Source: Escherichia phage cardinal
Strand: one strand, 5' to 3'
Sequence record: PQ567651.1
Length of the DNA: 64,000 nt
Within the stretch, counting starts at the first letter, position 1, and each line of letters begins with the position of its first letter. Below, piece by piece: positions 2-63,296 of the stretch. The position numbers and the translations under genes were made by a program. A model generated the notes under the pieces. That model made no database searches, was not told the origin of the DNA, and worked only from the letters and a program-made list of their open reading frames with translations.

Positions 2-274
2 GAAGTTCAGGACAGTGAAAAAACTCGTTGCCTCACGACTGTGCCTAAAGACGTACTATTAGCTTACATTCCACCTGGAAGATATCTAGATGCCTTTGAA
101 AAATTAAGTGAAGGCGTACATTATAGAAAGTTAACGGTTAAAGAGTGTTGCCGCTTGCAAGGTGTGCCAGATGACTACTTTAAAGTGAGTAGTAACACAC
201 AAGCATATAAGATGTTAGGTAACGGTTGGACTATACCTGTCATTGCACATATTCTTAAATGTATGGAGGAATAG
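2..274 (+). CDS. DNA (cytosine-5) methyltransferase, C-terminal fragment (gene begins upstream of window)
   Basis: C-terminal C5-MTase pattern RKLTVKECCRLQGVPDDY ... MLGNGWTIPVIAHI; frame open to window edge. Confidence 0.7.
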   Translation, partial: EVQDSEKTRCLTTVPKDVLLAYIPPGRYLDAFEKLSEGVHYRKLTVKECCRLQGVPDDYFKVSSNTQAYKMLGNGWTIPVIAHILKCMEE

Positions 275-37472: not shown

Positions 37473-37473
37473 A

Positions 37474-43441: not shown

Positions 43442-43688
43442 AAACTATAACTGCTCATGTAAAATCTGCCTAAACGGGGGAACTCTCAACGAGACAATCC
43501 CGTGCTAAACGTAACAGAACTCCCAACACAGAAGAAGGGGGGTACTATTACGAAATGCCTAACGACTAGCTGTGATGAATGTAGCAGCGTAGGGTGTAAG
43601 CCTATGACACCCCAAATGGTAGACATGCTTTAAGCATGAAGATATAGTCTGATCTGCATGGTGACATGCAGCAGCACGTAATGGTGCG
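43442..43688 (+). ncRNA. group I self-splicing intron (ORF-less) in nrdD; boundaries approximate
   Basis: aaatctgcctaaacggggg...gagacaatcccgtgctaaa...aatgcctaacgacta...aagatatagtctga.ctgcatggtgacatgcag resembles the T4 nrdD (sunY) intron core as recalled from memory. Confidence 0.7.
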
Positions 43689-46560: not shown

Positions 46561-46716
46561 ATGCTTACAGATGATGAATATAAAGCTATCCAAGAAAAAC
46601 TAACGGAGCTTGAAATTCTTGCTGTCAATATTAAAGATCAATCACATGCTGGAAAGTTACTACATCAAGAGATCAATAAAATTAAGCAGATGATATTCTT
46701 TTGGACGGAGGATTAA
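46561..46716 (+). CDS. hypothetical small protein, 51 aa
   Basis: AGGGGAAGAAA RBS; not in track. Confidence 0.4.
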   Translation: MLTDDEYKAIQEKLTELEILAVNIKDQSHAGKLLHQEINKIKQMIFFWTED

Positions 46717-46718
46717 AA

Positions 46719-47375
46719 ATGACTGTTAAGCATATTTCTTTTGATGTATGGAACACTCTTATTACTGCTAATCCTTTGTATGCAGAAGAGCGCAACAAGG
46801 TAATTGCCGAGTATGCCTCTTGTTCTGAGGCAGAAGCAGCAACTGTATATAAAGAAGTAAAAACTCTCCTGGATTTAAGAGCAGAAAAAGGCATTTGTGG
46901 AACATCTAGAAATGCTTGGGAAACACTTTCTGCTCATTTGAACATTGATCTTGATAAAGTAGATGGGTTAAAAAGAGACTGTTTAGCAATGTTTATAAAA
47001 CATCCTCCAATATTAAACCCTGAACTTTGCAAGAAGTTGGAAGAGCTAAGTTCAACCTATTCTTTGAGTATTAAAAGCAATACCAATTTTGTACCTGGTA
47101 GTTTCTTAGCTGTATATTCTGGCTTGACAAAATTACCATTTGACTTTATGCATTTTTCTGATGAGTTTTGCTTGTGTAAACCAGATCCCAGGTTTTTTAA
47201 ACTCTCTTTTGATGAAATGGTAACGTTTGATCTCGCACCAGAGGAGATCTTACACGTTGGAGATAGTTTGATCTATGATGGAAAAGCTGTTGACATAGGG
47301 ATGAAGTTCTGTCATATTATTAATCCAGAAGACTTGTTGGCTAAACTTAAAAAAGAGGAACTTATTAATGCGTAA
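46719..47375 (+). CDS. HAD-superfamily hydrolase-like protein (variant motif I)
   Basis: ISFDVWNTLI (motif I-like, second Asp replaced) and HVGDSLIYDGKA (motif IV GDxxxD). Confidence 0.5.
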   Translation: MTVKHISFDVWNTLITANPLYAEERNKVIAEYASCSEAEAATVYKEVKTLLDLRAEKGICGTSRNAWETLSAHLNIDLDKVDGLKRDCLAMFIKHPPILNPELCKKLEELSSTYSLSIKSNTNFVPGSFLAVYSGLTKLPFDFMHFSDEFCLCKPDPRFFKLSFDEMVTFDLAPEEILHVGDSLIYDGKAVDIGMKFCHIINPEDLLAKLKKEELINA

Positions 47376-48225
47376 TCAAATTCAACATTTTGCTAATATT
47401 TTTACTAACCTGAAGGAAGCAAAATTTAACATTGCAGATTATTCCAAGCTAAAGTTTGGTAGTAACCAGGCAGCAAAAAGAATGGGGCGCATTCTGGCTG
47501 AAAGTTTCTTTTCCAAGTATGAAGAACGACTGGTAAATGAAAGTTTTGTTGTTATTCCATCTCCATATAACTATGTGAAAAATGCAGCTACAGTGTTATC
47601 TGAACATTTTGTAGATCACCTCAACTACCTAATCTCTATCAAAGGAGGTAAAGCAGTGGAGTGGGATATCGTTCATCGTAAAGTGAGCTATATCAATGAT
47701 TATGGATTTCTTAGCAAAGAAGATCGTAAGGCTTTGATCGATGGTGACACTTTCTCTATCAATCGTGATTTCTGGGGTAATAAAACTCTGATTTTCATTG
47801 ATGATGTTAATATTACAGGAACGCACGAAGAAAAACTTATTGAAATTTTAGACAAAGAAGGTGTTGAAAACGATACGTTTTTCCTGTACTTTGCAAAGTA
47901 TGAAGGTACAGAAGCCAACACCGAAGCTGCACTTAACTTCAACTATATCAATAACCTGGCAGCTTTTATTAAAATGATTAAGCAAGAAACTGATGCTAAA
48001 TGTTTGGTTCGTCCTATTAAGTATCTAATGAGTCAAAGCGAAGTTGATTTTAAAATTGCACTTTCACAGCTTCCTTTGTATTATGTAGAACAACTGTTCT
48101 TTGGTTGCCTTGCAGAAGGCTACAATAACATTGAAAAATATAAAGAGAACTTTGATTTCCTGCGTCAATTTTTTGAAAGCAACATTATCAACAAATCTAA
48201 TGTTAAAGGGGATTATTATGTCTAA
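47368..48225 (+). CDS. type I phosphoribosyltransferase (PRTase)-like protein
   Basis: PRPP-binding signature TLIFIDDVNITGTHEE. Confidence 0.6.
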   Translation: MRNQIQHFANIFTNLKEAKFNIADYSKLKFGSNQAAKRMGRILAESFFSKYEERLVNESFVVIPSPYNYVKNAATVLSEHFVDHLNYLISIKGGKAVEWDIVHRKVSYINDYGFLSKEDRKALIDGDTFSINRDFWGNKTLIFIDDVNITGTHEEKLIEILDKEGVENDTFFLYFAKYEGTEANTEAALNFNYINNLAAFIKMIKQETDAKCLVRPIKYLMSQSEVDFKIALSQLPLYYVEQLFFGCLAEGYNNIEKYKENFDFLRQFFESNIINKSNVKGDYYV

Positions 48226-48934
48226 TAAAGTAATGACTTTCGGAGATCCTATCACCAATATTACAGAAAAAGATTTTGGGCGTGTAGCAACAGATAAAGA
48301 TGGTGTCTTAAGAATTCGTGTACAAGGTATTACAGCACAGGATGAATATGCTGTGTATGTTTCAGGTCTTAACTATATTGATGATCGCATTACACAAAAC
48401 TTTGCACTGATCGGTGGTGTAGAGAAAATGTATTGGGAAGATGAAATTGTAACAAGTTATCCGGCAGGTATCATTGAGGTATACGGTGATCTTTTAGCAG
48501 CAGCCGAGAGAGGCGATATAGACGCTATAGCACACTGCTGTAACTGTTTTTGCACTATGGGTAGTGGTATTGCACCAAAAATTAAAAGCAAGTGGCCTGG
48601 TGCGTTTAAAGCAGATTGTGCCACTAAACGTGGTGATTATAAAAAATTAGGTACGTTTACCAAATATACAGAAAACAATTTGACAATTTATAATTTATAT
48701 GGACAATATGGTTATAGTCGTCGTGAGGAAGGTAAGCGTGACCTGAATTATGAAGCTATCTACAATGCGTTAGATAGTATGGGAGACGATGTTGTATCTT
48801 CAGGCGGTAAAGTTGTAGGTTTACCGATGCTGGGTTGTGGTTTGGCTGGAGGGTCTTGGAATATTGTAAAACTTATGATCGAAGAAACTCTAGTAAACAA
48901 AGGTTTAAATGTAATTGTTTACAAACTGAAATAA
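48218..48934 (+). CDS. macro-domain-like protein (tentative)
   Basis: IAHCCNCFCTMGSGIAPKI and GLPMLGCGLAGGSW resemble macro-domain glycine-rich motifs; AAAGGGG RBS. Confidence 0.4.
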   Translation: MSNKVMTFGDPITNITEKDFGRVATDKDGVLRIRVQGITAQDEYAVYVSGLNYIDDRITQNFALIGGVEKMYWEDEIVTSYPAGIIEVYGDLLAAAERGDIDAIAHCCNCFCTMGSGIAPKIKSKWPGAFKADCATKRGDYKKLGTFTKYTENNLTIYNLYGQYGYSRREEGKRDLNYEAIYNALDSMGDDVVSSGGKVVGLPMLGCGLAGGSWNIVKLMIEETLVNKGLNVIVYKLK

Positions 48935-48943
48935 GGAGAAAGT

Positions 48944-49150
48944 ATGGCAGGTGTTTTAGCAGTATTAGGTTGTTTTATTGTTGTGTTTTTGATTGTGTTA
49001 ATCCCTAGTTGGCTGCTGCTTTTAGCATACAACTATATGATTGACATTATCGGTTTAGACTGGCATCATGTTCCTGTAACGTTTTGGAGTGTAGTCTGTG
49101 TGACGTTCATTCTTGCGGTACTTCGTGGTATCTTTCAATCTAACAAATAA
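48944..49150 (+). CDS. small membrane protein
   Basis: 68 aa hydrophobic; AAGGAGA RBS. Confidence 0.5.
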   Translation: MAGVLAVLGCFIVVFLIVLIPSWLLLLAYNYMIDIIGLDWHHVPVTFWSVVCVTFILAVLRGIFQSNK

Positions 49151-49177
49151 GAGAGGATTTTTATATGCGTAAAGTAA

Positions 49178-49414
49178 ATGTTGAAGTGCTTGAAAAAATT
49201 TAGAAACACTCGTGATTGTACTATCGGCAAGGTTTACGAGGCTATTCTCCTTGAAGATGGAGATCAAGTTCCTGCCCCGTATCACGCCTTTAATGGTCAG
49301 ATTAGCAAAGTGGAAGGTGGTATTGCTATTTGCTTTATTGATGACGTAGGTGATGCTGTAGCTTTCCCTATCATTAACAAAGAAGATAAACTTAAAATTA
49401 CAGAACTGAACTAG
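49178..49414 (+). CDS. hypothetical protein (start uncertain; possible frameshift from 49165)
   Basis: RBS GAGAGG serves ATG 49165, which terminates after 12 codons at an A6 run; long frame starts at ATG 49178. Confidence 0.4.
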   Translation: MLKCLKKFRNTRDCTIGKVYEAILLEDGDQVPAPYHAFNGQISKVEGGIAICFIDDVGDAVAFPIINKEDKLKITELN

Positions 49415-49491
49415 TTGACTTTCTTTAAAAACAGTTTATAGTATAAGACATAGAGCGGAGGATTGTCCTCCGCATTAAAGAGGAGAAAAGA

Positions 49492-50469
49492 ATGCAACTG
49501 GGTTTCCCAATTATTGATGTGGTTGTTTTAGTGGGTATTTTAGTCTTGTCGATTTGTATTGACTTCTTTGGACACAGAGAAAACAAAGAAATTTCATTTA
49601 AATCGGCAGTTGGTTGGTCAATTTTCTGGATTGGAGTATCATTAGCCTACTATGGTTTTGTATACTTCCAACACGGTGCTGATTTTGCGAGCTTGTTCTT
49701 GAGTGGGTATGTGTTGGAGAAATCTCTTTCTGTAGATAACTTAGTAGTATTTGTGGCAGTATTCGCAAGTTTTGGTATTAAAAGCACACACTTGCAACAC
49801 AAGATTCTACTTTGGGGTATTGCAGGTGCGATTGTCTTCCGAGGTGTGTTTGTAGCAGTAGGCACTTACTTGTTGAGTTTGGGCTGGTATGTTAATATCT
49901 TCTTCGGTGCTGTCATCCTTTTCTGTGCGGCTAAAATGGTATTCGCTGGAGATAATGATGCAGAAGTTGATTACTCTAAACACTGGGCTACTCGCATTGT
50001 TCGTAAGCTGTTCCCTGTATCTGATCAGATGGATGGTGAGAAGTTCTTCACAATCAAAAATGGTGTTCGTGTAGCAACTCCGGCTCTGGTTTGTGTGTTT
50101 GTAATGGAAATGGTTGACGTAATCTTTGCAGTAGACTCTGTTCCAGCAGTAATTGCAGTGACACAAGAACCTCTGCTTGTATTTTCTTCGATGCTCTGTG
50201 CAATCTTAGGTTTACGTGCTCTGTTCTTTGTTCTTAGTGTTGCACTGAAGTATTTGGTTCATCTGGAGAAAGCAGTTATCGTAGTCCTGGTATTTGTGGG
50301 TGCAAAACTGATGTATCATCCGTTTGCAGAAACTCTGCACGCAAAAATGAGTTTCCTGCCAGCACACATTGATCCGACGATCAGTATGTATATTGTGTTA
50401 GGTACTCTTGGGTTGGGTGTTGTTGCAAGTTTAATCTTCCCTGAAAAAGAAGATCAGACTGTTGCTTAA
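49492..50469 (+). CDS. terC: TerC-family integral membrane protein
   Basis: multiple TM helices and TerC signature LEKSLSVDNLVVF. Confidence 0.8.
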   Translation: MQLGFPIIDVVVLVGILVLSICIDFFGHRENKEISFKSAVGWSIFWIGVSLAYYGFVYFQHGADFASLFLSGYVLEKSLSVDNLVVFVAVFASFGIKSTHLQHKILLWGIAGAIVFRGVFVAVGTYLLSLGWYVNIFFGAVILFCAAKMVFAGDNDAEVDYSKHWATRIVRKLFPVSDQMDGEKFFTIKNGVRVATPALVCVFVMEMVDVIFAVDSVPAVIAVTQEPLLVFSSMLCAILGLRALFFVLSVALKYLVHLEKAVIVVLVFVGAKLMYHPFAETLHAKMSFLPAHIDPTISMYIVLGTLGLGVVASLIFPEKEDQTVA

Positions 50470-50475
50470 TTCATT

Positions 50476-50498
50476 AAGCCCCTTCGGGGGCTTTGTTG
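50476..50498 (+). terminator. rho-independent terminator
   Basis: aagcccc-ttcg-ggggctt then tgttg. Confidence 0.55.
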
Positions 50499-50508
50499 AG
50501 GTGATCTG

Positions 50509-50715
50509 ATGGTGGTTTTACGTGTTCTTTGGATTCTGTTTGAAAATATTTGTTTTGCTCTAGGGTTGTTTTGTTTGATTTTTATCTTGACAACATATAT
50601 TGATAACCATACAATTACTATCAACAGGAACGGAGAACAGATGTATTGTTTCTCTAGGGATTTTAAAAATTGTGTTGAGACTTTAAATGAGAGGGTTACA
50701 AATGAAAAACATTAA
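50509..50715 (+). CDS. small membrane protein
   Basis: 68 aa with hydrophobic N-terminus. Confidence 0.45.
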   Translation: MVVLRVLWILFENICFALGLFCLIFILTTYIDNHTITINRNGEQMYCFSRDFKNCVETLNERVTNEKH

Positions 50716-51292
50716 ATCTTTTATTGTTGCAGTTGTTTTAGGTAGTGCATTGCTGGTAGGTTGTGATGATTCTGAAAATGTACAAAATCAACGTTACCAA
50801 CAAACACCAAATCAGATGGTAGATGAACAATATGTAAATCAGCCTGCACCTCAAGTTGTTCAAGCAGCACCTGCACAACCTTCAACAGTTGTTGTGCAAG
50901 GAGGCGGCAGTGGTTCTTCTGGCGTAGGTGAGTTTGCTACAGGTATGCTTCTTGGTCATATGTTGAGTGGTAATAGTGGCGGTGGTGGTTATAGAGATGG
51001 CGGTAGCAATACAACAATTATTAATAACAACGCTGCTCCTACAACTAACAGTAAAGCATATACAACACAAAAACATAGTTTTTATGATAAACAAGGGAAT
51101 ACATATACAACAACTAAACAAAACACAATTAAGCAGCAAAGTGTACAAACGTATTCACGCCCATCAACAACAAAAGTGAATAGTGATTACTCTGCTCGTA
51201 AGTCTTACTCAAGCCCTATTAGCTCTTATAGTAAGTCTTCGAAAAGTTATTCTTCGTCGAAACGTAGTTTTAGTAGCTCACGTCGTCGTTAA
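50702..51292 (+). CDS. putative lipoprotein with Gly- and Ser/Thr/Tyr-rich low-complexity regions
   Basis: signal peptide with lipobox MKNIKSFIVAVVLGSALLVGC; C-terminal SYSSPISSYSKSSKSYSSSKRSFSSSRRR. Confidence 0.6.
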   Translation: MKNIKSFIVAVVLGSALLVGCDDSENVQNQRYQQTPNQMVDEQYVNQPAPQVVQAAPAQPSTVVVQGGGSGSSGVGEFATGMLLGHMLSGNSGGGGYRDGGSNTTIINNNAAPTTNSKAYTTQKHSFYDKQGNTYTTTKQNTIKQQSVQTYSRPSTTKVNSDYSARKSYSSPISSYSKSSKSYSSSKRSFSSSRRR

Positions 51293-51327
51293 TAATTTAA
51301 TACAGATTAAATAAGAAGGAGAAACAG

Positions 51328-52179
51328 ATGAAACTAGAAGTTGGTAAAGTGTATCGCCTGGAAGGTTGGATCTTTAATCAAGAAATTCTTGAGAAGAATA
51401 AAGATGGTTTTGAGTTTGTTGGTACTACCAAAGAAAGTATGCACGATGACGAATACTGTAAATTCGTTGGTAAAAATACAGGTCAAGAACAATTTTGCTT
51501 TAAAAGCGCAATCGGTGATTATGCTTCTGTAATGCCAACACCAGAAAAGACTTCGAAGCAATATACTGTCTTTGGTGTAAAACTTGAAGAACTTGTAGAA
51601 CACCCACGTTTTGAAGAGTTCAAGGTTGCTGCAATGCGCAAGCATTCTGAAATTAAAATACATAATTTGTTTGATTTAGAAGATCGGTTTGATATCTTTA
51701 TGTATGATCGCAGGGAAAAGCATTTTGATGCAACGACTTCAAAATTTGCTGCAACAGAGGATATTAAAATCCTTGATGTTGATACCTTTCTTGAGAGTGT
51801 ATCGTTTGTATTCATCCATAAATACAAGAAACGTAGTGATCATAAACGTGTGAAAGGAACTCCTCGTAAGAAACGTACTGTAAACAAAGCAACTTTGCAC
51901 TTCACTTCTGGTGATAAATATACTCTCAAAGGGTTTGAAAGTGTTTTGTATGATGCTGGAACGGGTAATATCAAGTTTATTATTAAGGCAACCTACAAAG
52001 GTACGGTATTGCACGAAGAGGCTGTTACACTACCTGTATTCGATATCTCTCGTGTTGAGGTACGGGGTGTTAAAGAGTCCTTCGATCTGGATTTCTTAAC
52101 TGCTAATACCACGGGTTATGTTAATCTGGAAGCAGATGGAGCATTTATTACTACAAATTATTTAGATATGTTTGTTTAA
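51328..52179 (+). CDS. hypothetical protein
   Basis: 283-aa ORF, AAGAAGGAGA RBS. Confidence 0.5.
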   Translation: MKLEVGKVYRLEGWIFNQEILEKNKDGFEFVGTTKESMHDDEYCKFVGKNTGQEQFCFKSAIGDYASVMPTPEKTSKQYTVFGVKLEELVEHPRFEEFKVAAMRKHSEIKIHNLFDLEDRFDIFMYDRREKHFDATTSKFAATEDIKILDVDTFLESVSFVFIHKYKKRSDHKRVKGTPRKKRTVNKATLHFTSGDKYTLKGFESVLYDAGTGNIKFIIKATYKGTVLHEEAVTLPVFDISRVEVRGVKESFDLDFLTANTTGYVNLEADGAFITTNYLDMFV

Positions 52180-52247
52180 TACTTAACTTGTGTTATGATG
52201 GTGGTACAGAGGTATCACCATTTACTAAAGAATATGGAGGAAATTGA

Positions 52248-53351
52248 ATGTCCAGTCCTTTTATCAGTGCCGTAAAAAGCAAACCGTCTGAAATGAGTGT
52301 ATTCACGGCAACAACAGAAAAAAGTAAGTCTTTGTTTGCTCCAAGTGCTATGGATGCAAGCCCTGTATATGCCCCTGCTGTTGCACGCCCTGTACAAATG
52401 CTGCCTCCAATGTCTCGTGAAGAGATTGAACAGGTTGGTGCTGATGCAGGACTTACTCTTCGTAACCTTAATGCTGAAGTGCTTAAACACCAGCGTTCAT
52501 CTCAGGGAGATGAAATGAGTGAACGTTTAACTGCGCTTATTAAGCAAGCAAAGCAACTTGATCCTAACTCTATTAAACAATCTAAAGGTTTAGGTAAACT
52601 AGTTAAGAAAGTTTTAGGTATGAAAGAAGATTTGTTTGGAGAATTTGACACCATCAATAACCGTATTGAAGGTTTGGTAAAGACACTCCAAACAGACTTG
52701 AAAAAAGAAGAAGATTCTTTACGATATCTGCAACGTTTAGAGGAAGCTATTGCAAAATATGCTCTTAGCTTAAACAGGGATATAGAGCTTCTAACAGCTA
52801 CTTATGAAAAAGAAGAAGTTCGCCTTAATACACTACCTGAAAATGAGGTAGAAGAGCGTCAACGTACTCGTGATACTATGGATCTGCTTGAAATTCGTAT
52901 TGCAGACCTGAAAGCCTTACGCTTACTATGTGTTCAGATGGGGCCACGTGTACAAAGTATGCAGAAAGTATCTGCAAGTTTGATGCGATCAGCCCGTAAT
53001 ATTGTGAATAATGTTATTCCTGCTTACTCTGCAAACTTTTCTATGTATATTGAAAGTCTACGCCAGAAGAAAGCAGCCGATACACAGAACAATGTACTGA
53101 ATGAATTTAATGCTGCTATTGCAATGGGTAGTGATCTGGCTGCACAAAACCAGATTGAAGCTACACAACTTGCTAATCGTCAAGTATTGGATATTGAAAC
53201 ATTGCGTCGTGATCAAGAAAACTTAGTTAAAATGTTGGAAGAAACTAACCGAATCAACACTGAAGCCCGTGCTGCTCGTATTGATTACATTCAAGAAGTG
53301 CAGTCTCTTGAAGATGGTATGATTCAAACTGTTAAACGTGGTCTACTTTAA
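52248..53351 (+). CDS. TelA-like (toxic anion resistance family) protein, tentative
   Basis: 367-aa mostly helical/coiled-coil protein; call rests mainly on size, composition and Ter-gene context. Confidence 0.4.
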   Translation: MSSPFISAVKSKPSEMSVFTATTEKSKSLFAPSAMDASPVYAPAVARPVQMLPPMSREEIEQVGADAGLTLRNLNAEVLKHQRSSQGDEMSERLTALIKQAKQLDPNSIKQSKGLGKLVKKVLGMKEDLFGEFDTINNRIEGLVKTLQTDLKKEEDSLRYLQRLEEAIAKYALSLNRDIELLTATYEKEEVRLNTLPENEVEERQRTRDTMDLLEIRIADLKALRLLCVQMGPRVQSMQKVSASLMRSARNIVNNVIPAYSANFSMYIESLRQKKAADTQNNVLNEFNAAIAMGSDLAAQNQIEATQLANRQVLDIETLRRDQENLVKMLEETNRINTEARAARIDYIQEVQSLEDGMIQTVKRGLL

Positions 53352-53364
53352 GGAGAAATATATT

Positions 53365-53571
53365 ATGAATATTAAAATTTACAAACTGTCTGGTTCTATG
53401 ATTGCTGTTCAGTATGACAATGAAGATCGTTATGTTCTCCTCCAGGATGCTTGGTTAGATGATCCTAATGTATTCACTGTCCTGCGAGAACTACGTGCTG
53501 TCTATACCTATTCTTCTAAAGATGGTTTTGACAATTCAACAATGGAATTGGTAAAAGAGGAGAATGTGTAA
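53365..53571 (+). CDS. hypothetical protein
   Basis: ORF with AAGGAGA RBS. Confidence 0.45.
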   Translation: MNIKIYKLSGSMIAVQYDNEDRYVLLQDAWLDDPNVFTVLRELRAVYTYSSKDGFDNSTMELVKEENV

Positions 53572-53771
53572 TGAGTAAAGATATTCACTTAACTCGTGAA
53601 GAATTGCAAACCATTATGGAAGATGCTTTCATTGATGGTTGGAAACAAGGTCAAGAATCAGATTGGTATGATGCCGAAGATTTTTTGTATTATCATATGA
53701 CTGCACCTGTAGACGAGCAAACACACTCTGAAACAACTTTGGCTTTAATTGATCTTAAGGCTGGTGTATAA
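53571..53771 (+). CDS. hypothetical protein
   Basis: 66-aa ORF, overlapping start/stop. Confidence 0.45.
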   Translation: MSKDIHLTREELQTIMEDAFIDGWKQGQESDWYDAEDFLYYHMTAPVDEQTHSETTLALIDLKAGV

Positions 53772-54334
53772 TGGGGTGTTTTAGTTTCTTGTGCAAAGAG
53801 TCTGGTAATGCTGCTCTTTCTACCTCTTTCGATGGCTCTCCTTGCTACCTATTTCTTTTGAAAGGTGGTAAGGTTGTCGAAGAGATGTATGGGAATTATG
53901 ATAGCTATGGTAGTGTTTTCTCTAACGAAGAAGATAAACATGGCAATCGTAAAAGATTCAAGTGGTCTATGCCTTGGGAAGAAGTTTGTAATTTGATGTT
54001 CTCTTCCGATCTTGGAGATGGGATTGCTCTGGTATTAGAAGAGCACTTTACAGGCGAGATCCCAACAGAAAGATCTGAAGAAGATCCTAACCAGGGTTGG
54101 GGTGATGGGGAAGAAGATCCAGATTGCTTCTTCAGCACTGAAAATAATAAATTTAAACGTGTTGACAATCCTTACCACAAAGTGCATAATACTTGCATTG
54201 AGACAGAAGAAGACTCAAAGCTAGAAATTGAAGATGATTTAGTTGTAACTATCTCTTTAAACGAGTTGCAAAAGATCACCAGAGAGGCTTTCTATTTAGG
54301 CTTGAGAGCAGGTAAAGGAGAAGACAGTGCTTAA
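53771..54334 (+). CDS. hypothetical acidic protein
   Basis: 187-aa ORF. Confidence 0.5.
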   Translation: MGCFSFLCKESGNAALSTSFDGSPCYLFLLKGGKVVEEMYGNYDSYGSVFSNEEDKHGNRKRFKWSMPWEEVCNLMFSSDLGDGIALVLEEHFTGEIPTERSEEDPNQGWGDGEEDPDCFFSTENNKFKRVDNPYHKVHNTCIETEEDSKLEIEDDLVVTISLNELQKITREAFYLGLRAGKGEDSA

Positions 54335-54596
54335 ATTTAATATCAAAGACGACAAATCAGATGAACCTAAATGTTTTGGAGAACTTGACGTAGGTGATAC
54401 ATTTGTATATTATGTTGCCTATCAAGATTCTGGTTTAGATACGTTCAGAAACTTAGTGTTTATTAAAGTTAATACAAACCAAGCAATGTGTCTGAACGGT
54501 TCGCAAAGAGGTCAAATTAGCTGTATTTCGTATGATACAGAAATGGTAGAAGTGGATTTAGAAGTTACTAACATTACACTCAGAAAGGAGAAATAA
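54327..54596 (+). CDS. hypothetical protein
   Basis: 89-aa ORF, GTG start with AAAGGAGA RBS. Confidence 0.4.
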   Translation: MLKFNIKDDKSDEPKCFGELDVGDTFVYYVAYQDSGLDTFRNLVFIKVNTNQAMCLNGSQRGQISCISYDTEMVEVDLEVTNITLRKEK

Positions 54597-54597
54597 T

Positions 54598-55391
54598 ATG
54601 TCCAATAAAATCAGTCTTAAAAAACGTCAAGAAACTCTTACCGTATCTCTGCGTAAGAAAAAGATTAACGATGTTGTTCTTCGTGTCGGTAGCGCCTTAG
54701 ATATTTCGGGTAGTATGTGTGAGCTGTATCGTGATGGCACTGTTAGTGATTTTGTAGGTAAGCTGCTGCCGTTTGGTATGAAGTTTGATGATAATGCACA
54801 GATTGACATGTGGGCTTTCAATAGTTCTTCTTTTGAACTGCCTCCTGCAACGGCTGATGTATATGATGATTATGTCGGCTCTTGTATGTCTAACGTTTGC
54901 ATCAATGGTGGTACAGCTTATGCTCCAGTAATGCAAGAGATCTATGATACATACTTCGGTAGTGTACCTATGAAAAATATTACACGCGAAGTCGTTGAGT
55001 ATGAAGAAGTTCCGGCTAAGGGTTTCCTTGCTAAACTAACTGGTAAAAAGAACTTGTAGAAGTAACACGTACTGTTGTAGAACAGGTTGTAGATACTGAT
55101 GCACAAGTTGATCGTACTCCTGCAATGATTTTCTTCCAAACTGACGGGGAGAACATGGATACTTCAGCAGTACGTAGCTTACTGAACAAACACCGCAATA
55201 CGCCTGTTTACTGGTTTATGGTTGGTGTAGGTAATGCAAACTTTAAATTCCTGAAAGACTTGGCAAAGGAATACGATAATGTTGACTTTATCGGTATTGC
55301 AGATTTGTCCTTGTCTGATGAAGAACTTTACGATAAACTGTTATCCGAAGAGTTTGGTGAGTGGGTTAAAAAATTTGGAGCAAAAGCGTAA
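54598..55391 (+). CDS. von Willebrand factor A (vWA) domain protein (TerY-like), interrupted by a frameshift at an A5 run (~55045-55049)
   Basis: MIDAS motif ALDISGSM, NGGTAYAP; after TAG at 55057-55059 the domain continues in another frame (...MIFFQTDGENMD...). Confidence 0.6.
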
Positions 55392-55463
55392 AAAACGCTT
55401 GACTTTGTAGAAAAGATTAGTAAAATAGACAACGTAAATTAACAACAAAGGAGATAATAAATT

Positions 55464-56060
55464 ATGACTCAGAAAATTTCCCTGAAAAAAGGTTCTAGCG
55501 AAAAAGTTTCTCTGAAAAAGATCGCACCAGCACTGAAACGCATTCGTCTGGAATTCTCTTGGAAATCTAACGAAAAACTGGATCTGGATGTTAGTGCTCT
55601 GATTTGCCGACACAATGCATCTGGTCTGCCGGAACTGTTGTCTCCTCGTCACCTGGTGTGCTACGCGCAGAAATTTGATCCTGAACGTTCTACTTTTGCA
55701 GGTGAAGATGTTCGTGATGGTGTAGGACAGATGGAGCAGATCGATGTTACTCTGGATAATATCTCTGCTGAAGCACAGGAAATTGCATTCGTAATTACTA
55801 TTGATGACGAAACGGGTAAGAAACGCCTTGGTCACGCTACCGAAGGTTTCCTTAAAATCTTCGATGATGAACGTAACGTTGAACTGCTGGATTTTGACTT
55901 CTTGGCTCCAGAACTTGCAGGTAATACCATTTGCCACGTTGCCTCCCTGGTGCGGGAAGATAATGAATGGAAACTGAAAGCATATGGTGTAGGTAAAGCT
56001 GGACTTGACATTTATGATGTAGTTAAAGCGTTTGGCGCTGGTGACGATTGGTTCGAGTAA
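55464..56060 (+). CDS. terD: TerD-family protein
   Basis: collinear with E. coli TerD: SLKKGSSEKVSLKK, DLDVSALIC, IAFVITIDDE, NEWKLKAYGVGKAG. Confidence 0.8.
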   Translation: MTQKISLKKGSSEKVSLKKIAPALKRIRLEFSWKSNEKLDLDVSALICRHNASGLPELLSPRHLVCYAQKFDPERSTFAGEDVRDGVGQMEQIDVTLDNISAEAQEIAFVITIDDETGKKRLGHATEGFLKIFDDERNVELLDFDFLAPELAGNTICHVASLVREDNEWKLKAYGVGKAGLDIYDVVKAFGAGDDWFE

Positions 56061-57606: not shown

Positions 57607-57836
57607 TGGCTGATGTTATTGAAGTTAACTTTAAAACAAAAAAGAAAGTTGATAAGTATACAATCTTAAAAAATATTTGCGTTGTGTGCTTCAATTCTGT
57701 AATATATGACTCACGTAAGGGCGAAAATGAAAATGAACCTTACATCCAGATTTCTAAAGGTAAAGGGCAGTGTATCTGCAAAAACTGTGCTGTAGCAATT
57801 AAGGAGGTTGTAGATGAAAACCATTGGGATCAATGA
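57606..57836 (+). CDS. small zinc-ribbon-like protein
   Basis: CVVCF...CICKNC; ATG overlaps upstream stop. Confidence 0.45.
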   Translation: MADVIEVNFKTKKKVDKYTILKNICVVCFNSVIYDSRKGENENEPYIQISKGKGQCICKNCAVAIKEVVDENHWDQ

Positions 57837-58008
57837 TACTGGTGAAGTTGTAAAGTCTTGGGATGATCTTAGTGGTATCCCTACAGATAAACTGATTAAA
57901 CTGCGTGATGTTTGTCGTGATCATCTTAATGAAACATATAAAGAGTATATGGAAGCACGAGATCACAGTTTAGCTATCCAGATGGAACTCGCAAAACGTA
58001 ATCAATAG
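57814..58008 (+). CDS. hypothetical protein
   Basis: 64-aa ORF. Confidence 0.45.
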   Translation: MKTIGINDTGEVVKSWDDLSGIPTDKLIKLRDVCRDHLNETYKEYMEARDHSLAIQMELAKRNQ

Positions 58009-58065
58009 GTAAAACCATTTGGACTTTTTAGTCTAAAAATGCTAAAGTAATAATACGGAGGGAGT

Positions 58066-58629
58066 ATGATATTTCACATAACTCCCTATCTTTCTGGAGA
58101 TATTGGAAAAGGTATCAATGACACAATAAGTGTCTTACCAGAAGATAGTTGGATTTGCCTAAGAGACATTGATACAATGTTTCTTCTTCCAGAACAACCT
58201 GCTTGGTTGGAATCAATAGTCCGTTCAAATCCTGATTTTGATGTTCTTGGTGCATCTTGTAATAGATTGGGATCAACATATCAATTATTTAATAATGAAA
58301 GAAGTGAAGATCCAAATATATTACACCACATTGAGATTGCAAAAAGAGCACATCTAGAATGGGGAAACTCAATAGAGGAAGTACCTACAGATGCTATCTT
58401 AGCAGGATTCTTTCTTCTCTTTCGTAAGAGTCTGTGGAATGAAATCCCTTTTGAGGAAAGATCAATACAGTTTGATATAATTTTCTCTAAAGCATTACAC
58501 GCTAACAATAAAAGGCTAGGTTTATTACGTGGGCTATATTTATTTCACACATACCGTTTAGGTAGTGATGATCCTAGGAAAGCTGTTTCACACCTTTTAC
58601 ATTGTCAAGACATGAATAAAATTATTTAA
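58066..58629 (+). CDS. hypothetical protein (possible glycosyltransferase-like)
   Basis: 187-aa ORF with DID motif (CLRDIDTMFL); assignment weak. Confidence 0.35.
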   Translation: MIFHITPYLSGDIGKGINDTISVLPEDSWICLRDIDTMFLLPEQPAWLESIVRSNPDFDVLGASCNRLGSTYQLFNNERSEDPNILHHIEIAKRAHLEWGNSIEEVPTDAILAGFFLLFRKSLWNEIPFEERSIQFDIIFSKALHANNKRLGLLRGLYLFHTYRLGSDDPRKAVSHLLHCQDMNKII

Positions 58630-58638
58630 GGAGTTATT

Positions 58639-59325
58639 TTGGAAAATACAAAAATTGGTGTTGGTGTTATTACTGTAGGTAAGCGTCCTCTTAAAGATTA
58701 TCTTGTGACTGATCCTAATGCTACTTTTGTTGTACAGTATGATCGGGAACGAAAAGGTGTTGCATATGCCCGTAATGAACTGATGAAAAAGTTTTATGAT
58801 GAAGGGTATGATTACTGGTTTATTTTTGATGATGATTGTTATCCGGTTGTGCCAGGTTGGGAAACATATTTTGTAAAACAGGCTAAGGAAAATGGTTGGG
58901 ATTTCTTTGGTATGCCTGAATACTTTAAAGATAAAGTAAAAGGTATTGAAGGTGAAGTGGTTATTTGGGAACTAGGTATGTGCCAGTTTGGTATGTATTC
59001 CCGTGCAGTTATTGAGAAAGCTGGCTATTTCCGTTCATACACCCACGGTTATGGATATGAAGATGCAGAGTGGATTCAGCGCGTTCCACTGGCAGGTTTG
59101 AACCGAGGTATTCTCGGCGTACCATGTCCTATTCGAATTATGGCGTTTATCCATCCTGACGATGTGTTTGGAGATAATCCTTTACCTTTTGCGAATCTGT
59201 CAAAAGAAGAGAAAGAACAGGGGATTGGTGTAAACTGGGAACAATATAAACAATCACTGGAGGATCTTCGCAATGGTAAAACTTTTATCTCTTATGAGGA
59301 GGCTCAAAAATATGGTAAGTCCTAA
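58639..59325 (+). CDS. putative GT-A-type glycosyltransferase
   Basis: DYWFIFDDDCYP (DxD-like) after N-terminal nucleotide-binding-like segment. Confidence 0.4.
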   Translation: MENTKIGVGVITVGKRPLKDYLVTDPNATFVVQYDRERKGVAYARNELMKKFYDEGYDYWFIFDDDCYPVVPGWETYFVKQAKENGWDFFGMPEYFKDKVKGIEGEVVIWELGMCQFGMYSRAVIEKAGYFRSYTHGYGYEDAEWIQRVPLAGLNRGILGVPCPIRIMAFIHPDDVFGDNPLPFANLSKEEKEQGIGVNWEQYKQSLEDLRNGKTFISYEEAQKYGKS

Positions 59326-60286
59326 TACTCCTGTACTTAAGTGTGATAATAAGTTAGGCAGTGGTTGTGATTACCATCGTATTGTAATGCCGTTTGCGGG
59401 AAATACATTTAAACCTAAGAAAGACGTTTTGGTTTTTAATAGAGTGTATTCTCGTGGATCAGACGAGGTTAAACGCCTGAAGGCACAAGGTGTTAAGATT
59501 ATTGTTGACTTAGATGACTTTTATTCACTTAACCCTGAACATTATATGGCTGGCGTATTTACTAATCACTCAAAGACTATTGTAGAGATGATTAAGTTAG
59601 CAGATGTTGTTACTGTAACAACAGAATATCTAGCTTACAAAATTCGTCATTTAAACCGTAATGTTGTCGTTATTAGAAACGCACTGCCTTACGACGAAGG
59701 TCAATTTACTTTGACAAAAGACCGTTATTCTGACACGCCTATTATTTGGGCTGGAGGAGCAAGCCATGAGCCTGACTTATCTCTTGTAGCTAATACATTT
59801 GATGATACACTATTGACAATTGCAGGGTATGAAGTGTATCCTTCTGCACCTGTTGGAAATAATAGTCAGTATCTAACTACTGCGGAGTGGGTTAAAGTAA
59901 AACGTAAAATTCCAAATGCACAGTATAAACCAGCTATTAAAAATTTAGGTGAGTATATGTCTGTGTATGACGGTCACAGTATTGCAATTGCTCCTCTGGT
60001 AGATAACGACTTCAACAACTGTAAAAGTAATTTGAAGATTTTGGAAGCAGGTGCAAAGGGTCTTCCTATTATCTGTTCTCCTGTGCTGCCGTACTTCAAT
60101 CCGGTAGATGCAAAGGCTGTTATCTATGCAGACTCTAAAGCATCTTGGCATTATGAAGTTGTCAAGCTAATGAGAAACCCTAGATACACAGAAGATCGTG
60201 GTATGATGCTTGCAGAACACGTTCGTCTTAATTATAATCTTGCAGATGCCAATGAACTGCGTCGTCAAGTTATTGAAAGTCTTTAA
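59312..60286 (+). CDS. putative GT-B glycosyltransferase (paralog A)
   Basis: C-terminal KSNLKILEAGAKGLPIICSP (GT1/GT4-like E..G.P motif); GAGGAGG RBS. Confidence 0.5.
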   Translation: MVSPNTPVLKCDNKLGSGCDYHRIVMPFAGNTFKPKKDVLVFNRVYSRGSDEVKRLKAQGVKIIVDLDDFYSLNPEHYMAGVFTNHSKTIVEMIKLADVVTVTTEYLAYKIRHLNRNVVVIRNALPYDEGQFTLTKDRYSDTPIIWAGGASHEPDLSLVANTFDDTLLTIAGYEVYPSAPVGNNSQYLTTAEWVKVKRKIPNAQYKPAIKNLGEYMSVYDGHSIAIAPLVDNDFNNCKSNLKILEAGAKGLPIICSPVLPYFNPVDAKAVIYADSKASWHYEVVKLMRNPRYTEDRGMMLAEHVRLNYNLADANELRRQVIESL

Positions 60287-60297
60287 TAAGGAGCGAT

Positions 60298-61242
60298 ATG
60301 CCTAATATTATTCTTGACACACGTGGGCATGAGAGGTATAGTGTATGTGATTTTCATAGAATCATTTTGCCATATAAACGCAAACTGACCATTAATCCTA
60401 AGCATAATATTTTTGTGTTTAATGGAGTACCAACCCGTGGAAAGCCAGGTTTCCTGGCTCTTAAACAACTTGGGTTTAAATTGGTAATGGATCTGGATGA
60501 TTCTTTAATTATTCCTGAAGGGCATATGCTGGAAGGATTATTTGAAAATCAAATCCGAGATGACCTAAAATGGTTCCTTGAAAGAAGCGATCTTGTAACT
60601 ACAACAACTCCGGCATTAAAGGTTGAACTAAGCCAATACAATGATAATGTACATATTGTGCCTAACGGACTACCTTTTGATGAAGGACAGTTTGTTCTTA
60701 CTAAAGATCGTTATTCTAAAAGTCCACTGGTTTGGGCGGGAAGTGAAACACATAAACATGATTTAGCAATTCTTCCTGATTTTGGTAAAGATTTAACTTT
60801 ATGTGGATTTCGTAGAGATCACGAAGAGTTAAGTAGTGCTCAATGGTTGCAAATTAAAGAAAATATTCAACCAGATTGTGTTTATGAAGGTATTCGTCCT
60901 TATGAGTGTTATATGGAAGCATACGATGGTCATCAAATCTCCATAGCTCCATTAGTAAATAATCATTTTAATAATGCCAAAAGTAATTTAAAAATTCTTG
61001 AAGCTGGTGCTAAAGGTTTGCCACTCGTTTGTTCGCCACGAGAGAACTATTATACTGAAGAATTTAAAGATCTAATCTTCTTTGCTGATTCAGTTAAAGA
61101 GTGGAAAGATATTGTAGAATACTTAATCGAATCCCCTGATGTTTGTATTGAGAAAGGATTGGCTCTTGCTAAGTATGTAAGAGATAACTACAATATTGAT
61201 GATTTAAATGAAACCCGCAGACTGCTTATCGAGGATTTATAA
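60298..61242 (+). CDS. putative GT-B glycosyltransferase (paralog B)
   Basis: shares FVLTKDRYS..P..WAG and KSNLKILEAGAKGLP with paralog A. Confidence 0.5.
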   Translation: MPNIILDTRGHERYSVCDFHRIILPYKRKLTINPKHNIFVFNGVPTRGKPGFLALKQLGFKLVMDLDDSLIIPEGHMLEGLFENQIRDDLKWFLERSDLVTTTTPALKVELSQYNDNVHIVPNGLPFDEGQFVLTKDRYSKSPLVWAGSETHKHDLAILPDFGKDLTLCGFRRDHEELSSAQWLQIKENIQPDCVYEGIRPYECYMEAYDGHQISIAPLVNNHFNNAKSNLKILEAGAKGLPLVCSPRENYYTEEFKDLIFFADSVKEWKDIVEYLIESPDVCIEKGLALAKYVRDNYNIDDLNETRRLLIEDL

Positions 61243-61511
61243 TGCACACTTTTGATTTTGAGTATAAACAAGATAATAAAGAACCTATTATTGTTGAAGT
61301 AGATTACTATTATGAAGAACCTAACCCTTTCTCACGAGAAAGTGATTGGGATTATTATGGTGGTCTTATTGTTGATGGTATTAGGTTTTATTCTGGTACA
61401 AAAGACCTTTTTGATATAGATATTTCCCCATCGGAAATTGTTTACCAATTTAAGAAACATATGGAAGATTTGGAAATGCAATATATTATGGAGACAAACG
61501 AATCATTTTAG
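61242..61511 (+). CDS. hypothetical protein
   Basis: 89-aa ORF. Confidence 0.45.
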   Translation: MHTFDFEYKQDNKEPIIVEVDYYYEEPNPFSRESDWDYYGGLIVDGIRFYSGTKDLFDIDISPSEIVYQFKKHMEDLEMQYIMETNESF

Positions 61512-61523
61512 TAGGAGAATCCT

Positions 61524-63296
61524 GTGTCTTATGTTGTAAATAAATATGGGTATAACATTGATCTAAGTCAAGAAGGACATACTGGGTGTCCTCGTTGTAT
61601 GAAAGGAGGGCGTGATCGATCACAAAACAATTTGATGGTATATGGCTTAGATGCCGATGAAGACCATCGAGGCGCACATTGTTTTTCTTGTGGCTTTACT
61701 ATCCCTGATCAAAAATGGTTAAATGCACACGGCGAAGAAATTGAAGAGGAGGATATCTTGGGTAGTGAGTTTAATCCAGAAGTACATGATAAACTAAAAG
61801 CCAGCACTGGAACTAATCCAAAAGGTTATCGCGGTATTCGTGAAGATATCTCTAAGCCTTTCGGTGTACGTTATATGTACGATGAAGCTACTGGCGAAGT
61901 AATTTCAACACTATACCCTACAACTAAAGATTACAATATTGCTGGGTATAAACAACGTATCGATCCAAAAGATTTCTCACATCCTATAGGTGAAACAGGA
62001 AAGGATTGTGATCTTTTTGGGGAGTTTAAATATCGTAACCACAGCGGTACTATTCTAATCGTTGGTGGTGAACACGATATGCTGGCTGCAACACAGATGC
62101 TAAAAGATTATAACAAGGGTGGTAAATATCCTGTTCCTGCTGTAGTATCTGGTACTTGTGGCGAAACATCTCTGCATAAGCAGCTTCAACATCGTTATAA
62201 ATTCTTAGATCAATTTAAAAAGATTGTTCTATGTATGGATAATGATGAAGCTGGACGTGCAGCAGTTGAGAAATGTGTTAAAATCTTACCACGTAATAAA
62301 GTTTACGTGATGGAACTAACGGATGTTAAAGATCCTAACCAGGCACTAGTAGAAGGAAAAATTGATCATTTTATTGATCGCTTTTTCAAAGCTAAACTGT
62401 ACACACCTGCTGGTGTTTACGCTTCTAACGTACTATATGAAGCAGCCTTGGAATGCCTGGAAGCTAAAATGATCACCCTTCCTCCATTCATGCGTGTTGC
62501 TTCTAACATGTTAGGTGGAGGCTTGGTAGAAGAAGAAATTACTGTTATACTTGCAAAAACAAGTATCGGTAAAACACTGTTGGTTAACGAGATTACGAAG
62601 CACATTATTCTTGCACACCCAGAACATACTCTTGGTATTTTATCTTTGGAGGCAACGTATAAGAAGTATTCTCGTAACTTACTGTCTTCATTCTTGCACA
62701 TCCCTCTTCACCGTAAAACAAAAGAAGAGAAGGAAAAGATTTTAAAAGATAATGAAGAAAAGATTCGTGATTTTTACGAACGAGAAGATGGAACACCACG
62801 TTTCTATGTTTGTGATGATCGTGGAGCTAACGTAGATGTGATTAAAGAGAAGGTTCTGGAAATGATTATTTATTTCGGAGTAACCATTCTTGTTATCGAC
62901 CCTTATTCTGACTTGCTTTCTGGTATGGACGTGTCACAACAAGAGGAACTTGCGACGTGGCTCAAACGCATTATGAAAGAGTACGCAATTACCATTGTTG
63001 TAATTTCACACGTTAAAAAGTCTTCTAACAATAGTAATGAACATATTGTAGAAGATGATGCAATGGGTAGTAGCTTCCTTGCTAAAGGTGCTGGTATCAC
63101 AATTGCGCTGGAGCGTGATAAACAAGCTGAAGATCCTATGGAACGTAACCGCACATATTGCTACATTCTAAAGAACCGTGAGTTCTCAGAGACTGGTGCA
63201 GCAGGTAGTTTCTTCTATGAGATTAAAACAGCGACACTTCACGATTACGATCAATACACAAGTAACCCAGAGAATATTCCTGATGGTTCTTATTAA
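61524..63296 (+). CDS. bifunctional DNA primase-helicase (T7 gp4-like)
   Basis: N-terminal zinc ribbon CPRC...CFSCG, TOPRIM-like VGGEHD...CMDNDEAG, DnaB-type Walker A AKTSIGKT; GTG start with AGGAGA RBS. Confidence 0.8.
   Translation: MSYVVNKYGYNIDLSQEGHTGCPRCMKGGRDRSQNNLMVYGLDADEDHRGAHCFSCGFTIPDQKWLNAHGEEIEEEDILGSEFNPEVHDKLKASTGTNPKGYRGIREDISKPFGVRYMYDEATGEVISTLYPTTKDYNIAGYKQRIDPKDFSHPIGETGKDCDLFGEFKYRNHSGTILIVGGEHDMLAATQMLKDYNKGGKYPVPAVVSGTCGETSLHKQLQHRYKFLDQFKKIVLCMDNDEAGRAAVEKCVKILPRNKVYVMELTDVKDPNQALVEGKIDHFIDRFFKAKLYTPAGVYASNVLYEAALECLEAKMITLPPFMRVASNMLGGGLVEEEITVILAKTSIGKTLLVNEITKHIILAHPEHTLGILSLEATYKKYSRNLLSSFLHIPLHRKTKEEKEKILKDNEEKIRDFYEREDGTPRFYVCDDRGANVDVIKEKVLEMIIYFGVTILVIDPYSDLLSGMDVSQQEELATWLKRIMKEYAITIVVISHVKKSSNNSNEHIVEDDAMGSSFLAKGAGITIALERDKQAEDPMERNRTYCYILKNREFSETGAAGSFFYEIKTATLHDYDQYTSNPENIPDGSY

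Follow-up and report, generated by a model that had tools for sequence, protein, structure and literature searches.

A conserved glycosyltransferase cassette beside the replication genes of Escherichia phage cardinal and its possible acceptors

Introduction

Phages RB69, DLP3 and RL38JI glycosylate 5-hydroxycytosine (5hoC), a base that is produced by a ThyA homolog (PMC13326640, 2026), and transfer of sugars to a virion component has its example in the capsid of mycobacteriophage Che8, whose glycosylation is cited second-hand in PMC11256854. The locus considered here is a cassette of four glycosyltransferase (GT) genes, termed ORF1 to ORF4 after their open reading frames (ORFs), at positions 58066 to 61242 (+ strand) of a 64,000-nt stretch of Escherichia phage cardinal (PQ567651.1); this whole stretch is called the window below. 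Mycobacteriophage virion glycosylation involving Che8 gp108-110 is said to have been described by Freeman et al. in 2023. Phages close to cardinal have been discussed in similar terms: Olsen et al. (2020) noted genes of the rhamnose pathway in the genomes of phi92-like phages and Phapecoctavirus and raised the idea that hydroxymethylated nucleotides might be rhamnosylated, and Maffei et al. (2021), in presenting the BASEL collection, wrote of 'a putative dTDP glycosylation machinery' and of phages 'exceptionally susceptible' to restriction-modification.

The GT genes are annotated in phi92, in Bas60-62 and in RefSeq, and DNA glycosylation has been speculated upon in print; their detection, which is how the locus was first put forward, therefore adds nothing new. 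The new part is evidence against the DNA idea, along with the finding that a coupled GT-A/GT-B core is widespread and recurrently neighbours glycan-tailoring genes, head and packaging genes, and Ig-like surface proteins. The four ORFs are predicted to be soluble cytoplasmic glycosyltransferases, likely co-transcribed as one cassette. The reading favoured here, that the cassette assembles a glycan stepwise on a protein acceptor, probably one of the virion, is held tentatively and given somewhat less than an even chance.

Organization of the cassette

Positions 57800-61600 of the window identify the phage as a member of the genus Justusliebigvirus (phi92-like, Stephanstirmvirinae), being 98.0-98.5% identical to many deposited Escherichia phages, among them phi92, PD06, BME3, the BASEL phages Bas60-62, Eryne and the Durham phage PATM (phiPATM), which matches the four-gene block at 97.9% identity over its full length. 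An intact copy of the entire block occurs in 124 phage records. Of these, 55, with 95-99% identity, constitute the Justusliebigvirus group, and those remaining, at about 69%, belong to Phapecoctavirus and its relatives, with some Klebsiella phage records among them. Several of the relatives' records already label the four genes 'glycosyltransferase (x4)', and the BASEL records speak of two genes for a 'putative glycosyltransferase' and two for a 'putative disaccharide synthase', the latter being ORF3 and ORF4. Five records deposited as 'Campylobacter phage' (host C. jejuni) also match the locus, four at 98% (Justusliebigvirus-like) and one at about 69% (Phapecoctavirus-like); the host labels of these records (MG065639, MG065645, MG065656, MG065689 and MG065650) are probably mistaken, or else contamination affected the samples.

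A sequence-only reading of the window had pointed to four GT genes on the + strand, comprising a paralogous GT-B pair with a shared C-terminal motif, a DxD-containing candidate GT-A and a weaker candidate, all next to replication genes; each of these elements was recovered where it had been placed. The profile searches that the same reading had recommended returned PHROG glycosyltransferase families for all four proteins (E = 1e-78 to 1e-149), the Pfam profile PF13524 being passed by ORF4 alone, and sequence searches against PDB chains and NCBIfam gave nothing meaningful. With curated Pfam support thin and the NCBIfam and PDB searches empty, family alignments were built and structures were predicted.

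ORF1 (58066..58629, +; 187 aa), a minimal GT-A enzyme that matches no Pfam or NCBIfam family, has a single Rossmann-like GT-A fold in its predicted structure and carries the invariant residues D34-x-D36, N66-R67, H88, D137, H161-x-Y163-R164 and H176. D34 and D36 do not vary across 34 aligned sequences, and what had been listed as the weaker candidate is a genuine GT-A fold. ORF2 (58639..59325, +; 228 aa; phrog_2456, E = 1.2e-78) is GT2/GT7-like and likewise predicted to adopt a single Rossmann-like GT-A fold, and the DxD seen in it at the outset is part of an invariant FDDD (residues 63-66), accompanied by Y138-G-x-E141-D142, the YGxED of beta4GalT/GT2-type enzymes; D64, D65 and D66 do not vary among 16 sequences and hardly vary among 85. 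ORF2 is probably an inverting enzyme. Its best Pfam match is TAGT (PF20691), at 23.3 bits against a cut-off of 27.5 and over residues 16-75 only; the match to Glyco_transf_7C is weak, none was found in NCBIfam, and there is a weak match to the PHROG of the T-even beta-glucosyl-HMC alpha-glucosyltransferase. An exhaustive profile search brought the ORF2 family to 1485 representatives, and among the 85 of these sampled for Pfam matches, Glycos_transf_2 was found in 41, Glyco_transf_7C in 37 and TAGT, weakly, in 12.

ORF3 (59273..60286, +; 337 aa, pI 8.9; phrog_7162, E = 3.7e-149) and ORF4 (60298..61242, +; 314 aa, pI 5.3) are GT4-like GT-B proteins and paralogs of one another, with 41% identity over 311 aa (E = 2e-82). 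Both contain the GT-B C-terminal motif, as KSNLKILEAGAKGLPIICSP at residues 251-270 of ORF3 and as KSNLKILEAGAKGLPLVCSP at residues 228-247 of ORF4, and both are predicted to fold into two Rossmann-like domains, of which the C-terminal one would bind the nucleotide sugar. ORF4 scores just above the cut-off of 25 bits for PF13524 (Glyco_trans_1_2), at 26.8 bits, and ORF3 below it, at 14.7 bits, with a weak match to Glyco_trans_1_4 as well. The start codon of ORF3 is ambiguous, ATG 59273 and ATG 59312 each being preceded by a GGAGG-type Shine-Dalgarno sequence; because the alignments to the PHROG family and to the paralog do not set in until about residue 15-20 of the long form, the start at 59312 (324 aa) is favoured over the one at 59273 used in public annotations.

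None of the four ORFs contains a transmembrane-like or hydrophobic segment. Neighbouring genes of the cassette are co-directional and overlap or are separated by at most 12 nt, and no terminator-like site was found on the + strand from 56085 to the window end, hence none between the GT genes and the adjoining replication gene, a primase/helicase (61524..63296, +; Toprim_2 and DnaB_C; phrog_239, E = 1e-166). These features make a single transcription unit likely, and the four GT genes and the primase/helicase are probably carried on one transcript; a promoter scan performed at chance level (34 matches, 29 expected). Between ORF4 and the primase/helicase lies a conserved 89-aa ORF (61242..61511, +; phrog_4240, E = 3.9e-34, a family of no assigned function), whose membership in the module is uncertain; a contig of a distant myophage (L014) encodes an 85-aa protein at the matching position.

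A conserved GT-A-then-GT-B core and its neighbourhoods

A GT-B profile scan of viral contigs returned at least 552 loci, and the best 80 were examined for gene context. An ORF2-family GT-A is also encoded in 59 of these 80, and in 52 of the 59 it stands directly upstream of the GT-B gene and co-directional with it (median gap -18 nt), the arrangement also seen for ORF2-ORF3; relatives of ORF1 are present in 11 of the 80. By this comparison, ORF2-ORF3 represents a conserved, translationally coupled GT-A-then-GT-B core, to which ORF4 and ORF1 are lineage-specific additions.

The company kept by this core was then read from the gene contexts. The main environmental phage group has a hexapeptide-repeat acyltransferase upstream of the pair and the large terminase 3.3 kb downstream. 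One contig (L005) combines a GT2, GLF (UDP-galactopyranose mutase), a polysaccharide deacetylase and two Methyltransf_24 proteins (O-methyltransferase-type) beside portal and capsid genes; a second (L006) holds GT-D-like, TOD1/MUCI70, DegT, epimerase and Stealth genes; a third (L009) encodes two PF13524 GT-Bs, a GT2, more GT-like proteins, a dehydratase, a radical SAM protein and DegT beside DnaB and PolA; and the distant myophage L014 carries a sugar dehydratase/epimerase inside its cassette, directly upstream of primase/helicase and DNA polymerase. Judged by their gene content, these four other, unrelated contexts are islands of glycan building.

The GT-B family is rare in bacterial chromosomes, where it was found at 9 loci. 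In Burkholderia dolosa (L015:3025-8440) and Trinickia (L101:2765-8918) the GT-B gene follows an adhesin gene and a gene for a conserved protein of about 560 aa without a Pfam match, the adhesin being an inverse autotransporter with IAT_beta, Big_1 and Invasin_D3 (Ig-like) domains; a conserved gene of about 475 aa accompanies this operon on the opposite strand. Four Pseudomonas chromosomes contain the GT-A-then-GT-B pair within a prophage, in which a small protein, rich in Thr, Ser and Ala and bearing a Big_2 Ig-like domain, is encoded immediately upstream of the pair (L099:6625-7266; also L100, L098 and L024), and phage metallopeptidase, terminase, portal and head-morphogenesis genes follow immediately downstream. 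This Ig-like protein is a candidate glycosylation substrate. Among isolated phages, the only distant relatives of ORF2 are GTs of about 340 mycobacteriophages, mostly of cluster F, where they are encoded at the right end of the genome, syntenic with the Che8 glycosylation genes. Taken as gene neighbourhoods, the Ig-like, adhesin and mycobacteriophage associations, each from a single lineage, offer hints of a protein acceptor.

DNA as a proposed acceptor

The sequence-only reading had suggested, as one of its two options, that the GTs and a C5 methyltransferase at the window start make up a DNA hypermodification module. In its general form, an idea already raised in the literature, rhamnose or hexoses would be put onto a modified base in the phage DNA and allow it to evade host nucleases. 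Several findings speak for it: the proven DNA arabinosyltransferases of RB69 and DLP3 match the same PDB structures as ORF4, ORF2 has the weak matches to TAGT and to the T-even alpha-glucosyltransferase PHROG described above, and a ThyA homolog with N177D, a substitution that predicts dCMP specificity, is encoded within 4-7 kb in 2 of the 80 GT-B loci. The fold of the cassette proteins had been considered as an argument against a DNA acceptor and was dropped, as the DLP3 and RB69 arabinosyltransferases match the same PDB entries (PMC13326640, Table 1).

The enzymes that would prepare a base for glycosylation were looked for and not found. A tblastn search with E. coli ThyA yielded chance matches only (E about 7), whether in the window or in 120 kb of Eryne, and the 'thymidylate synthase' annotated in Justusliebigvirus, the only thymidylate synthase homolog there, is ThyX (Pfam PF02511). 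As a ThyX-family protein, with PF02511 and an RHR-type motif, it is not a ThyA homolog, and the TAGT match of ORF2 is sub-threshold and not family-wide. No TET/JBP domain was detected in window ORFs of at least 165 aa, and none is annotated in the relative. The C5 cytosine methyltransferase itself is present as reported, its C-terminal 90 aa lying at 2-274 (+) and running off the window start, and its full-length Eryne ortholog belongs to PF00145; it is, however, about 58 kb from the GT genes, and its neighbours are without Pfam match. The homolog contexts hold deacetylases, O-methyltransferases and aminotransferases, none of them known from DNA sugar modification.

Three observations on these enzymes stand apart. 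The ThyX of Eryne (L004:18583-19554) is divergent: it has 323 aa, its match to Thy1 covers residues 22-170 only (E = 4e-9), a THR...S...S.R motif replaces RHR, and there is a C-terminal extension of about 150 aa. Relatives encode at least three further DNA methyltransferases, one of them Dam-like. The ThyA homologs near GT-B genes lie on two environmental contigs (L089:11255-12034 and L086:14574-15230); the published active-site diagnostics for such homologs are N177D, L143D/E and D169N (PMC13326640), and both proteins have N177D, one combined with L143/D169 and the other with K143/D169, so that they fit neither the hydroxymethylase nor the 5hoC-synthase signature.

Published phenotypes bear on the question more directly, all of them obtained with phages near-identical to cardinal rather than with cardinal itself. 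In the BASEL raw data, Bas61 reaches 2.7e7 plaque-forming units on the vector control, and the columns for the EcoRI, EcoRV and EcoPI hosts hold the placeholder for no plaques; the BASEL paper reports exceptional susceptibility to restriction-modification for the phi92-like phages. BREX restricts phiPATM about 10^7-fold, and the phage is listed in the BREX-sensitive and not in the BrxU-sensitive set. According to the authors of the phiPATM study, BrxU cleaves DNA with 5-methylcytosine, 5-hydroxymethylcytosine (5hmC) or glucosyl-5hmC, and DNA modifications block BREX activity; in a 2026 follow-up from Durham, confined to Straboviridae, BrxU cleaved all modifications tested. Druantia III and ARMADA II, for which unmodified DNA is the inferred target, are active against Bas61/62 and not against hypermodified Straboviridae. 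These published experiments fit DNA that behaves as unmodified, which is the outcome of the restriction-sensitivity check that had been proposed, and a literature search found no nucleoside liquid chromatography-mass spectrometry data for the phi92-like lineage. Restriction sensitivity rules out complete base replacement only, and not sparse or site-specific modification. Complete or cytosine-directed DNA glycosylation is very unlikely, and DNA base glycosylation of any kind is, in our estimate, highly improbable. The proposed module with the distant methyltransferase is not supported, given restriction-sensitive relatives and no ThyA or TET/JBP found.

Possible envelope and cytoplasmic acceptors

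The other option raised at the outset, modification of the host surface, would take the form of envelope remodelling: lipid-linked intermediates such as undecaprenyl-linked units of enterobacterial common antigen (ECA) or O-antigen, or the lipid A-core, would be modified where the inner membrane faces the cytoplasm; the altered glycans would mask the phage's own ECA/NGR and lipopolysaccharide (LPS)-core receptors and lower superinfection or the loss of progeny on debris. The receptors of these phages are indeed ECA and, within the LPS outer core, the first glucose, the BASEL label 'putative disaccharide synthase' is compatible with such a role, and the best structural matches of ORF4 include enzymes with lipid-linked acceptors, namely a Campylobacter undecaprenyl pyrophosphate-linked GalNAc transferase, WlaC, PimA/PimB, WaaG and WaaB. 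dTDP-4-keto-6-deoxyglucose is the precursor common to the Fuc4NAc of ECA and to rhamnose, and through this shared precursor the phage Rml enzymes touch ECA metabolism. Against this, neither a membrane anchor nor a flippase, polymerase or ligase is encoded, ORF1-ORF4 are without hydrophobic segments, and a strictly lytic phage would have little time to replace existing outer-membrane glycans. The related GT pairs of many unrelated phages, moreover, adjoin packaging or head genes or Ig-like proteins rather than envelope genes, and the family occupies only 9 bacterial loci, with no recognisable polysaccharide-biosynthesis genes in the contexts examined. Envelope remodelling is judged unlikely, though a serious rival.

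The enzymes might also act on something else in the cytoplasm: a host protein (modified during takeover), a tRNA or other RNA, or a small molecule, with a possible tie to a Ter-type gene cluster that lies directly upstream on the same strand. The top structural matches of ORF4 also include small-molecule GTs (sucrose-phosphate synthase, BshA, tetrahydrobiopterin glucosyltransferase and SenB), and the phage encodes many tRNAs and NAD-salvage enzymes. Yet in none of the loci examined are the distant GT homologs accompanied by Ter genes, no specific candidate emerged, and four transferases in a row suggest assembly of an oligosaccharide rather than a single modification. This explanation is considered improbable, if less so than DNA glycosylation.

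A probable glycan on a protein acceptor: the favoured proposal

Assembly of a glycan on a protein, probably of the virion, can be set out as follows. The ancient coupled pair ORF2-ORF3, extended by the paralog ORF4 and the minimal GT-A ORF1, would draw on host nucleotide sugars and on dTDP-L-rhamnose boosted by phage RmlB, RmlC and RmlD. The enzymes would act sequentially in the cytoplasm, adding sugars to form a short oligosaccharide on a non-DNA acceptor, which by analogy with mycobacteriophage and giant-virus particles would most likely be a protein and plausibly an Ig-like-domain or fibre protein on the virion. dTDP-beta-L-rhamnose is normally the substrate of inverting enzymes, and GT4-like enzymes are typically retaining. 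ORF1 or ORF2 is for this reason the best rhamnosyltransferase candidate, and the GT4-like pair ORF3/ORF4 would use UDP-sugars of the host; the glycan would probably contain rhamnose. Which donor sugars are used, in what order the enzymes act and what they modify are inferences in this scheme.

The supply of rhamnose is encoded outside the window. RmlB, RmlC and RmlD of the relative Eryne have strong Pfam matches, and the rml genes co-occur with the cassette, the taxon profile of RmlC being all but identical to that of the cassette GTs, with 106 Escherichia records in each search. The 436-aa 'RmlB' of Eryne (L004:11717-13027) is a dTDP-glucose 4,6-dehydratase fused to the C-terminal third of RmlA, and this C-terminal fragment, spanning positions 159-243 of the 245 of the NTP_transferase profile, is all there is of RmlA. 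The published 'complete' dTDP-rhamnose pathway therefore looks overstated, and RmlA or RffH of the host is presumably needed for dTDP-L-rhamnose.

A number of results weigh against a protein acceptor. No glycan or acceptor has been observed, and the literature search found no glycoproteomic or structural report on the phi92-like lineage. BLASTP of ORF1-ORF4 against Che8 gp108-110 gave nothing below E = 0.2. The fold cannot tell acceptors apart, since the DNA arabinosyltransferases of RB69 and DLP3, which are also paralogous, match 6kih, BshA and PimA. The 80 viral loci are not independent because one syntenic environmental phage group supplies most of them, and the Ig-like and the adhesin associations come from a single lineage each. 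The GT genes sit among early/middle replication genes and not among late structural genes. Across the 33 proteins tested, no virion protein proved significantly Ser/Thr-rich at its C-terminus: the tail sheath comes to 9 Ser/Thr among the final 25 residues, a count that is not significant once the number of tests is allowed for, and nothing stands out in the major capsid and tube proteins. Two specific acceptor ideas were also tried and rejected, namely a collagen-like fibre as a BclA-like rhamnosylation target, which turned out to have short Lys/Asp/Pro-rich G-x-y runs only and no G-x-Thr arrays, and a similarity of the adhesin to a tail fibre, which amounted to a 40-residue match with E = 0.026 and was not significant.

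Two further points were removed from consideration. The proven enzymes of Che8 are not the mycobacteriophage relatives of ORF2, as BLASTP shows a different GT of about 480 aa at the syntenic position, and the negative glycostain of the E. coli phage JEP7, the one coliphage glycostain that the literature search brought up, does not count as contrary evidence, JEP7 being an unrelated Rosemountvirus without the cassette.

A bolder proposal goes beyond the favoured reading of a glycan on a protein acceptor: that this would be the first protein or virion glycosylation system of a phage with a Gram-negative host, that the ORF2-ORF3 core glycosylates Ig-like surface proteins (fibres, decoration proteins and Burkholderiaceae adhesins), and that phi92-like virions carry a rhamnose glycan. 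In this full form the proposal is doubtful. Were virions to carry a phage-made glycan, immune recognition, stability and host interaction would be affected, and glycosylation of phage particles would extend beyond actinobacteriophages. The cassette lineage consists of tractable, therapy-relevant coliphages that can be cultivated on E. coli K-12.

Neighbouring genes and other observations

The Ter-type cluster upstream of the cassette (46701-56060, +) encodes a HAD hydrolase, a ComF-like phosphoribosyltransferase (PF15610), a Macro protein, a TerC membrane protein, TelA, a vWA-TerF-like protein and TerD, and it resembles the 'Ter-dependent' module for nucleoside-like metabolites that Anantharaman, Iyer and Aravind proposed. 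A 1-nt deletion at about 55045 divides the vWA-TerF-like gene into two ORFs (54598-55059 and 55125-55391); in EmilieFrey it is a single coding sequence of 795 nt, and the split gene is either a frameshifted pseudogene or the product of a sequencing error. Between the Ter cluster and the GT genes lies a gene for a SleB-like cell-wall hydrolase (PF07486; 56808-57317, +) with a hydrophobic, signal-like N-terminus, distinct from the endolysin annotated elsewhere in relatives.

Two differences from Eryne were seen further upstream. A UvrD-like helicase of 937 aa (37435-40248, +) contains an intein (Intein_splicing/Hint, residues about 267-613), and its Eryne ortholog, of 578 aa, is intein-free; at window 43396-43671 (+), comparison with Eryne showed nrdD of the latter to be uninterrupted. 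A 465-aa protein with five CapR-homology repeats and a T5orf172 domain (27539-28936, -) and a Sir2-family protein (1605-2417, +) are possible host-takeover or anti-defence genes.

Comparison with known systems

The phage pyrimidine glycosylation clusters, which yield glucosyl-5hmC in T-even phages, arabinosyl-5hoC in RB69 and DLP3, and hexosyl-5hoC in RL38JI, differ from the cassette lineage in that the latter has ThyX only, with no ThyA-family hydroxymethylase or 5-hydroxy-dCMP synthase found, and in that the DNA of near-identical relatives is cut by type II and type III enzymes and restricted by BREX. The cassette also holds GT-A enzymes, and the sugar pathway that goes with its lineage leads to dTDP-rhamnose, whereas those clusters use UDP-arabinose, glucose or galactofuranose. 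The likeness to TAGT (PF20691) consists of a GT-A fold, a DxD and a weak resemblance to the profile across the N-terminal 60 residues of ORF2, its nucleotide-sugar-binding part; the differences are that ORF2 falls below the gathering threshold and belongs to a GT2/GT7 family, that no TET/JBP partner was found, and that the C5 methyltransferase is about 58 kb off.

Bacterial adhesin glycosylation operons offer a further comparison, in that, outside prophages, the only bacterial homologs found for the GT-B family follow an Ig-like inverse-autotransporter adhesin in an uncharacterised operon of two Burkholderiaceae genera. To our knowledge, the known adhesin glycosyltransferases (heptosyltransferases and HMW1C) belong to other families.

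The Che8-type system differs from the cassette in several respects, since the cassette proteins lack detectable similarity to gp108-110, the phage is a virulent myophage of a Gram-negative host, its GT genes adjoin those for replication, and its virion proteins show no evident Ser/Thr-rich C-terminus as an acceptor. Both are nonetheless phage operons of several soluble GTs with no DNA-modification partners; distant relatives of ORF2 lie at the syntenic genome end, and related islands hold O-methyltransferases along with further genes for glycan tailoring. The giant viruses, finally, belong to another host domain and have another virion architecture, and structural matches of the cassette to mimivirus R699/R655, chlorovirus B736L and several CgeB-like proteins express a resemblance at the level of fold only; even so, chloroviruses and mimiviruses, like the cassette lineage, combine virus-encoded soluble GT-A and GT-B enzymes with virus-encoded pathways for rhamnose or rare sugars.

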